49,545 bases of DNA from contig MQRK01216362.1 in the NCBI GenBank assembly GCA_001938485.1, positions 1 to 49,545 of the forward strand. Reading direction: 5' to 3'. A program made the position numbers and the translations under genes. This stretch comes from Girardia tigrina (Eukaryota). A model generated the notes under the pieces. That model was given only the letters and a program-made list of their open reading frames with translations, searched no databases and was not told where the DNA came from. Shown here piece by piece: positions 31,701-34,700 of this stretch (position 1 is its first letter; the number at the start of each line of letters is the position of its first letter).

Positions 31701-34700
31701 TTGAAAATGGGTCAATTTTTCAAAGGAAAAAGTCGTTTTCTTTATCTCGACGTTTTGGAAATTTGTCTCGAAAGGTTTTATTTTTATTTAATGTGTAATA
31801 GTAAAGCTAGTCTTAGTTTTTTTTTCAAATTAGTAGAATGTTTATTAAAATTTTCAATAAAAACTAAGATTGGCTTTTTTTCTTTTTATTAATCCGTTAT
31901 ATTTAAAAATAAATTTTGATTAATTTTAATAATGTATCACACCACAAACATCTACATATTTTGTTCTTAAATAAAATTCTTCATATATAACCATAAATGA
32001 ACCGCCGTATAAGACAAATAATATCATAAAAAATAATAGCAATTTAAAAAAATAAGTATCGCAAAAAAATAATAATGTATAATTTTATTAAATTAAAACA
32101 GAACGCCATTTTTCAACATTTATTTTGGGTTTTATAATTAATTTCGGCGGATTAACCGCCATCTTCAGGCTAAACATTAGCTTTTTTTACAGCTTATATA
32201 TGAGAATGGTGATTATTAATATATCGTTCTTGGTCTCTTTCGTCAACATATTTAAACCCCGACGAAAGTTTAAATAAATTAACAAGTTTATTAATTAAAA
32301 ATGGATGGTCGAAATCATTTATCGAAAAATTAACTCATCAAACTTTAGATAAAATATTAAATGAGTCAAATAGTAATAATAAAAAACTTAATAATACAAT
32401 TCATTATACTATTTTCCGTAATACAAATTATAACCCTCTTGAATCAAAGTATATCTTATCGATTCCTTATTAGGAGGACTTTAAACATTTAAAATTATCA
32501 ATTTTGAAAAAAATTTTTGATTCCGAATACCATGAATCTAAAAATTATTTCACAATCATATAAAATTCGTGATATGTTCAACAATAAATCTCCCACTCCT
32601 CTCGATTTGTGCTCCGATCTTGTTTAAAAATATACTTGTAATGGGTGTAACGCCACATACATTTGAGAGACATCTCGTCATCTCTGCAAACGGATCTAGT
32701 CTATTGGATAATAGGAGCAATATTGCTGAACATAATTTTAAATGTAAAAAAGAAATTGTTTTTCAAATTGTGTAATCGATTTAAGAATTACTGGTAGGGA
32801 GTAATGTGTGAGGTCTTATTAATAAGATCCATGGATTCAAAAATTAATATTCAAGCTTCACACTCAACTTCTCTGTAAAACATTTTCAAATAGAGTCTTT
32901 TTTACATAATTGATTACATAATCACAATTCTCATATATAAGCTGCAAAAAACTAATATTAATTTAGTCTGAAGAAGGTGGGTAATCCGCCGAAATTAAGT
33001 ACAAAACAAAAAATAAATTTTGAAGAATGGCGTTCTGTTTTATATATCAAGAGTATAAATTGTCATTGTTTTTACATTCCTTATAATTTTATTAGTTTAA
33101 ATATTTAAGTTCGTGTTTTAAAAGTATTTCTATAATAAGTGTCTTTTGATCCTCATTTTACCATACCCAAATCCAAAAATATTGCATAATTTTAAAACAT
33201 AAATGTCAGTATCTCAATTTTCAAAGAACAACAGATATAGATACTGAAGTCAATATTGTGGCATTTAAAAAAATATTTCTAAATGTTAGGTTGAGATTTC
33301 TAAACAATTATTTCAGATTAATACAAGTCAATGTATGAAGAATAAAATTACTTGAAAATATTTGTTTTTTATTAAATATATTACTTATTAATAAAAACAA
33401 ATTTCAGTATTTATATAAATATTTGAATTTCAGCAGCGTCCTATTAATCGGTCACCCAATGAAAATATTGCCCCTTATTCTAATGAATCTTTTAATTCGT
33501 CAAGTTTCGCCAATCCTTTCAAACAAACTTTCAAGGCTTGTGAAAATGTATGATTTTTTGATAACTTTTTAAAATTTATTTATAACGGAAAATAATTGTT
33601 TATTATTTGTTTTATCAAAAATCATAAAATTTAATAAAAGCTTTATTTAATTATTATGAAACTAGGAAATGTTTTCACATGTATGCTGAAAGTATTTGTC
33701 TCATAATTTATCCCTAAATTGCAATAGTACCATTATATTTTATTGAAATTTTTAGCTTTTATCAAAGAAAGACATTTGATTTGTAATTAATATATACGAG
33801 ATGATTTCTTGAAGAATATTTACAATGTTTCTTACAACATTTACTTTACTATTTAAGTAAATATATAAAATCATAATCGGAAGACTTGAAAAATGTAGTT
33901 GGGAACTTCCGAAATTCTTAAAATTTGTTAAAATATTTTATTATTTTCCAAATTGAAAAAAAAGAACAAATAATATTGTCATAATTCCCGGTAATAGTTA
34001 TTGATATTATTATTAGTTATTATTTTCTTAACACATGGTTCAGTTTTTTATTTTCTACTAATCCATTTTTGAATAAGAATATTTCTGAAAATCTTATTTT
34101 TAATAATGATTTTGTAAAATGAATAGCCTTTTAAATGCTCACCAAATCTAACTATCAAAAAAGCAAATATACATGATTACTTTAGGTGTTATCATTTTTT
34201 AGAATATCGTAAGCATCTTTTCCAGATAAACAGATTAAACTCCGCCACCAAAAACAGATTATAAAAAAGAAGATATAAAACTTGTACTTTTATTTTTCAT
34301 TGAAGAGGGTGAATTTTGGGATATGTCATTAATAATTTGCATGAAAAGATCCGTATTTCGGTATCTTGGCCTCCAAACGAACTCACACAAGTAGCTTTCC
34401 ACTAAAGATCAGTGTGTACCGCATTGACGCTTATACTGCATCTTGTAGACATGCCAGAAAGATTCGATCGTTTGTGTGTGAGCTCCGACGAAGTTTTCGG
34501 CATGATTAACCGTTTGATGATTATAATTCATGCAAATCATCGTTTCAATTCCTTGGTGAGGCATGAGGCCCACATATCGAAAATGATGATTGAGCTTGAA
34601 GCGATGCAGGCCGGGATTGTGTTCAGCAGAGTAGTCACAGTTTGATCTGGCGCTGCATACATGAAGACTGCCTTAATCTTCGAACAGATACCTCCGAAAT

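Follow-up and report, generated by a model that had tools for sequence, protein, structure and literature searches.

An inverted pair of decayed minimal hammerhead motifs from a Penelope/Poseidon-type retroelement in an intron of a Domino gene

Domino is essential in other animals. In the Domino-type gene analysed here, one intron holds a retroelement insertion with two hammerhead motifs on opposite strands, and the motif in the sense of the host pre-mRNA has lost the nucleotide U16.1. The question raised by this locus is whether that loss, together with the capacity of the two arms of the insertion to pair with each other, reflects selection against self-cleavage or its structural silencing, as a first-pass annotation of the window (the whole stretch of 49,545 nucleotides that was analysed) had proposed, or whether the insertion is simply decaying.

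The modelled protein of the host gene aligns to Domino/SRCAP proteins, contains the Pfam HSA and SNF2 domains and, in a tree of 20 sequences, groups with flatworms (support 97/96). The intron that received the insertion had been numbered 19 and is intron 20 in the 24-exon model. Contigs of X3 and X8 skip this intron and also 29685-31301, 33548-35357 and two further GT..AG introns; these are two studies whose RNA status is only guessed or unlabelled, none of the 21 runs listed being recorded as RNA. Exon joints were observed from 29684 onward, and the exons upstream of it are predicted, with a summed length of 4347 nt that fits the 4378 letters preceding exon 14 in record 22 of X8. The features of the gene and of the insertion are as follows.

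7200-35893, plus strand: Domino/SRCAP/p400-type helicase gene (model of 24 exons, 1980 codons without a stop)
31775-33433, plus strand: host intron 20 (GT..AG, 1659 nt), after exon 20, from the skips in X3 and X8 contigs and the gene model
32078-32090, plus strand: left target-site duplication (TSD), 13 bp exact; 15 of 17 positions match when extended to 32094
32095-32216, minus strand: left arm, an inverted, 5'-truncated pLTR copy, from self-comparison of the sequence (repeat match from 32094)
32129-32175, minus strand: minimal type I hammerhead, antisense to Domino (core 32142-32168), from manual register and protein overlap
32216-32893, plus strand: 3' part of the ORF of the Penelope-like element (PLE), with RT thumb, linker and GIY-YIG, a pseudogene, from protein alignment
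32894-32973, plus strand: PLE 3' UTR and at the same time the upstream part of the pLTR, from the sequence, with the ORF end from tblastn
32918-33041, plus strand: right arm, the direct pLTR portion common with the inverted arm, from self-comparison (match to 33042)
32961-33007, plus strand: minimal type I hammerhead, sense to Domino (core 32968-32994), from manual register and protein overlap
32974-33081, plus strand: start of the PLE ORF, repeated in the pLTR and the tail, from an 11-residue reading aligned with the family peptide MAGNPPKLITK
33042-33081, plus strand: 40-nt tail, at the right end only, between the arm end and the TSD
33082-33094, plus strand: right TSD, an exact match to the left 13-bp copy

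Two side observations concern the host gene itself. X1 and X2 behave as DNA; they also include contigs from which Domino introns are precisely absent (31772>33432 at depths of 932 and 403, and further 35480>35529 and 35734>35782, within 31302-35897, Domino exons 18-24) and which carry letters at 33482, 33486 and 33487 that X3 and X8 lack. This suggests that the 3' end of Domino also exists in DNA as several diverged, processed copies, which a retroelement made or a transposon bears. In intron 12, the stretch 25163-25336 exactly repeats 25403-25523 (121 bp) and also 25719-25774 (56 bp), which lies inside exon 13; these duplications may be an assembly artefact.

The insertion is 987 bp long (32095-33081), 5'-truncated and in the sense of Domino, and these limits were set because an exact 13-bp duplication flanks the unit; among up to 3000 random pairs of intron windows, one reached 13 bp by chance. 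Both junctions between element and host are bridged by contigs of X1, X2 and X3, and no joint of an empty site was present among the 15 of 334 joints listed, which says nothing about fixation. The inverted repeats of about 120 nt reported in the first-pass annotation are present (32094-32216 and 32918-33042); they match in two blocks (32094-32174 with 32962-33042, and 32183-32216 with 32918-32951); 13 of the 120 aligned columns carry substitutions, and there are 2 indels. The end of the element, previously placed at 33041, moves to 33081, with the 40-nt tail lying beyond the right arm and followed by the TSD. Family contigs align up to at least 33068, into this tail, and the family sequence extends upstream of 32216 in loose ends of X8 contigs. 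A reading of the unit as a MITE or a retrozyme is ruled out, for the arms enclose what is left of an ORF, and their arrangement is not a tandem one.

With a related piece of endonuclease sequence from another part of the window as query, 12 proteins were obtained, and two of these (P0002 and P0012), with their cluster, represent the family of the remnant between the arms. Compared with the full-length protein P0018 (841 aa), the body matches at 191 of 220 aligned codons, so that the decayed GIY-YIG/RT-thumb remnant recognised earlier is indeed there; its minimum non-synonymous divergence is about 6%, and it carries 5 stops and at least 3 frameshifts. P0018 has an RVT_1 domain above the Pfam cut-off, a C-terminal CxxC-YIGET-H-H, i.e. 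the CCHH motif of GIY-YIG endonucleases, and a DKG motif, and it lacks the Cx2-5CxxC zinc finger in the linker, unlike Neptune and Nematis; the Pfam GIY-YIG model matched only below its cut-off, on P0002 (E 0.002). A DKG motif, a linker without zinc finger and a GIY-YIG at the C-terminus are diagnostic of Penelope/Poseidon in the available part of Craig 2021 (PMC8557442). The window insertion retains RT thumb and endonuclease as a pseudogene and has the layout of an EN+ PLE, with a pLTR that has an inverted 5' copy, a tail within the 30-40 bp range (an optional trait) and a TSD. Judged by these diagnostic motifs and this layout, it is an EN+ PLE of the Penelope/Poseidon clade, with Perere as a possible subclade; Naiad/Chlamys are ruled out by their N-terminal endonuclease, and Hydra by its lack of CCHH.

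The closest described arrangement is that of Pen2/Pen2a in Adineta vaga, for which the available parts of Arkhipova 2013 (PMC3846280) and Craig 2021 (PMC8557442) describe a 5'-truncated body between inverted pLTRs, a one-sided tail, a TSD, and a pLTR that takes in the initial codons of an ORF roughly 840 aa long. The present element belongs to a different family in a flatworm-like host, and has a TSD of 13-17 bp and a tail of 40 nt, whereas in the same parts of these papers Pen2/Pen2a have 9-10 bp and 31 nt.

That the family and its relatives are very abundant is plain from the summed X1 contig depth, 7.4-9.6e5 over the element against 22-29 in unique bins, a ratio that is not to be read as a copy number. 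P0002 gave 210 pattern matches among metagenome contigs, of which none was confirmed as family DNA. A relaxed hammerhead pattern found at least 117 metagenome loci and 6 viral loci, with no tblastn hit to four family proteins among these 123, and a family-specific pattern had no match in genome and viral contigs. About 38 of the 123 loci (counted by eye; e.g. L001, L009 and L057), mostly on AT-rich metagenome contigs, have a minimal hammerhead-like motif of another type, with 4 nt in loop II and a near-palindrome after it; these are probably PLE ends from animal DNA in the samples.

In both arms the sequence reads CUGAAGA, one extra nucleotide, a 5-bp stem II and GAAA, so the core described in the first-pass annotation was recovered in each. 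The traits of minimal type I hammerheads (CUGANGA, GAAA, an extra nucleotide after A9, G10.1-C11.1 and H17) occur in both arms and in a third copy elsewhere in the window, and N17 is U in all three (33000, 32136 and 41650; triplet AUU). AUU is a poor cleavage triplet. A loose core pattern run over the whole window gave 7 matches against 2.74 expected, which alone is weak evidence, and an Rfam search recovered no hammerhead family among 5 matches at E up to 5. Minimal hammerheads may score below the Rfam hammerhead models; because Rfam gave no such match, the motifs are called here from the register, set by hand, and from the overlap with the protein.

The protein overlap comes from the position of the motif: belonging to the pLTR and overlapping the start codon, it is present twice. 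The N-terminus of P0018 and P0020, MAGNPPKLITK, is the hammerhead translated in frame from an AUG at the end of the CUGAAGA box, and the sense and the antisense arm each yield an 11-residue reading. Nine of the 48 PLE proteins examined reach the N-terminus, and all nine (about 7 distinct families) start with M-x(4-6)-K-x-I, the peptide of GAAA-NNN-AUH, with K-x-I at this place in 9/9. Because the N-terminal peptides of family proteins encode them, U16.1, A1.1 and C1.2 are the family state. A search with cluster representatives (61 hits) brought no further N-terminus that was clear: of 59 new rows, 6 fit a looser motif, among which P0172 repeats P0044 and the remaining ones are distant and probably chance matches. 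That the ORF starts in the hammerhead thus provides a handy trick, for protein N-termini reveal the family state of the cleavage triplet. Together with the anatomy, these proteins bear out the claim of a Penelope-like element with minimal type I hammerheads and an inverted 5' pLTR.

The motifs resemble the minimal hammerheads of metazoan PLEs (Cervera and de la Pena 2014, PMC4209133) in the extra nucleotide between 9 and 10.1, in G10.1-C11.1, in the palindromic 15.1-16.1 and in the short stem I. In Schistosoma mansoni, the same study reported opposite-strand hammerhead pairs about 100-700 bp apart; here the cores are about 800 bp apart, stem II has 5 bp rather than 7-8 bp, and, unlike the published motifs, both copies are mutant at a core-adjacent pair. 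Two further peculiarities were observed: compared with P0018 and P0020, both arms have 6 additional in-frame bases following the hammerhead, a place where family contigs vary, and at 32951-32967 and 32169-32181 the 5' strand of stem I and the adjacent upstream sequence can pair into a 5-bp hairpin, which would compete with the weak stem I and is a possible reason for low activity without protein.

The first-pass annotation had described damage to the core in the sense copy alone. The sense copy has three changes (32975, 32978 and 32999). At 32999, U16.1 is lost (AUU to AGU), A15.1-U16.1 has become A·G and stem III AUUAAG, so that this pair and the palindrome are broken, while the N1.1-N2.1 pair is intact; 32978 gives a wobble in stem II, and 32975 changes the extra nucleotide, which at the same time is the central base of the family start codon. 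In contigs of X1 (32965-33466), possibly the source sample, and of a second study, X3 (32847-33461), no other letter occurs at 32999, which rules out an assembly error there. With the protein register (9/9) and the contigs of two studies, the loss of U16.1 stands.

The antisense copy had been described as keeping its core and its AUUAAU palindrome. Both are retained, as is A15.1-U16.1, but the ribozyme is not intact: stem I opens with C·A, G·U and A·A, that is, a C2.1·A1.1 mismatch (32169/32135) that abolishes the N1.1-N2.1 pair and a G2.2·U1.2 wobble (32134), and 4 nt are deleted just upstream of the hammerhead. The first base of loop II also differs; it varies in the family, and the direction of the change is not assignable. 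As U at 2.1 is taken as the family state from one 30-letter loose-end consensus (at 32950; 33 contigs, agreement 0.67), and the 40 of 766 rows of other letters that are listed include neither 32967 nor 32999, the antisense C2.1 could be a subfamily variant rather than a mutation. According to the available part of Perreault 2011, its filter rejects hammerheads with a mispair at N1.1-N2.1 or at A15.1-U16.1, and what it discards is for the most part cryptic mutants located in repeats; both arm copies fail this filter.

A related remnant outside Domino served as an internal control.

41224-41700 (end approximate), plus strand: second, related PLE remnant, from protein alignment
41611-41657, plus strand: third hammerhead (core 41618-41644), core intact, within the second remnant

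This remnant is identical to P0001 at 103 of 111 codons, with one frameshift and about 3% divergence; it has no convincing TSD (best 10 bp), and its ORF start resembles that of P0166. Its hammerhead has a perfect 7-bp stem I and two defects, an A·A mismatch in stem II and, relative to the related N-terminus of P0166, a broken palindrome. Other mobile DNA is also present in the window: Pfam matches mark DDE_1 (15060-15857, in a remnant at 15060-16128), Transposase_1 (22303-23118) and an integrase core (40205-40783), and further remnants at 10497-11569, 13024-13254 and 84-2520 hold ORFs that we take, by motif, to be Tc1-like and BEL/Pao-like. A MITE-like 145-bp inverted repeat (44906-45050 and 45597-45740, 96.6% identity) is found inside the stretch occupied by a minus-strand Aha1 gene (44011-48007).

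The claimed asymmetry of damage between sense and antisense therefore fails on the C·A mismatch and the 4-nt deletion of the antisense copy. The counts also speak for decay: differences between the arms are not enriched inside the hammerhead (6 of 45 columns there, 7 of 75 elsewhere; Fisher p=0.55), 1 difference falls in the 11 invariant core columns against 1.19 expected, and change is even across body, arms and hammerheads at about 5-6% per site. That the U16.1 change was fixed by selection since the sense hammerhead cut Domino pre-mRNA is very improbable. In its favour, the single change in the 11 core columns falls on the sense copy, which is also a point against neutral decay; it removes a nucleotide implied by every N-terminally complete family protein, and A15.1/U16.1 mutants are reported, in the passages available, to cleave at least 10-fold less. 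Yet under neutral decay the probability of a core hit in the sense copy alone is 0.19-0.25 (5-10% divergence, 11-13 core sites), both the antisense and the third copy are damaged as well, and the sense motif would have been fully masked at insertion. Selection against self-cleavage is thus unsupported at this locus, where both copies are defective at the cleavage site, and U16.1 was most likely lost through one of several random hits. Two published points weigh against the neutral reading: retrozymes are reported as depleted from Xenopus introns in a 2026 preprint, the available part of which does not contain the words orientation and antisense, and passages of Chen 2024 state, citing Fong 2009, that fast intronic ribozymes can lower splicing. 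The same passages cite slow ones without splicing effect. Evidence from a single locus leaves room for a genome-wide orientation bias.

Masking by arm-to-arm pairing holds in silico. The predicted minimum-energy fold of the whole element contains 107 arm-to-arm pairs, with an arm duplex of -135.9 kcal/mol. The pair probability of the sense stem II is 0.99 alone, 0.74 with the body and 0 with the left arm, the last both in the nascent fold and in the whole intron, and that of the minus-strand motif falls from 0.30-0.60 to 0 once the partner arm is included; these values are equilibrium predictions for naked RNA. As an adaptation the masking does not stand, because it is equal in both orientations and follows from geometry on either strand, from insertion onward. 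As the arms were presumably identical at insertion, masking would have operated from the start and therefore removed any need to select a core mutation.

A different role for masking may be considered, in which pairing with the inverted 5' pLTR, itself a by-product of geometry, would filter which intronic insertions persist. The inverted 5' pLTR might act as a built-in antisense lock on either transcribed strand, its complement being made first and pairing with the hammerhead, although on present evidence we regard such a lock as unlikely. It would predict, equally doubtfully, that insertions with inverted arms are tolerated in introns both ways and that solo sense hammerheads are purged or mutated. 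The folds agree with such a filter, since stem II drops to 0 on both strands with the partner arm and the complement is transcribed first in both orientations; but these are equilibrium folds of naked RNA, masking matters only if the unmasked motif cleaves and monomers did not, and the U16.1 change is left unexplained by masking. The filter is compatible with neutral decay and adds a fitness claim that goes beyond one locus, and we consider it improbable. In the literature searched, from which most subscription papers fell outside, no paper was found that tests the antisense lock or an orientation bias.

Very probably, the insertion is a dead-on-arrival copy of an abundant Penelope/Poseidon-type retroelement that is decaying neutrally. 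Published PLE work suggests how it might have arisen: the element protein would have nicked AT-rich intron DNA, reverse transcription would have begun in the ORF start downstream of the hammerhead, giving the 40-nt tail, and halted in the RT thumb, a second, shorter pLTR copy would have been joined in inverted orientation, and repair would have left the target-site duplication. The available part of Frangieh 2024 (PMC11167929) describes a comparable start in PAc, the Poseidon of Anolis carolinensis, in which the ORF also starts at stem II, the target is AT-rich, the tail is likewise ORF-start sequence and the cut site lies 26 nt into the ORF (27 here). Unlike the present pseudogene, known from sequence alone, PAc is intact and its protein-assisted cleavage was tested: the PAc hammerhead needed protein to cleave, and monomeric minimal hammerheads have been published as showing no cleavage. 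It is unlikely that either motif of the insertion cleaves Domino pre-mRNA appreciably, since a single minimal hammerhead depends on the element protein or on a partner with which to form a dimer; the sense motif, moreover, would be made after its own complement and pair with it, and has lost U16.1. The insertion shares with the amniote RECK and C10orf118 hammerheads and with CPEB3 a self-cleaving motif in sense within a host intron, but those are, in the passages available, conserved and active, whereas this one lies in a decaying repeat without U16.1.

Opposite-strand minimal hammerhead pairs and inverted pLTRs are already published, and the insertion is another copy of that arrangement. As one decayed copy of a very abundant family it is of limited importance in itself, and it offers a clean annotated example. 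If the antisense lock were true genome-wide, it would be the first evidence of PLE hammerheads cleaving host transcripts in vivo, and would give the inverted pLTR a fitness consequence.
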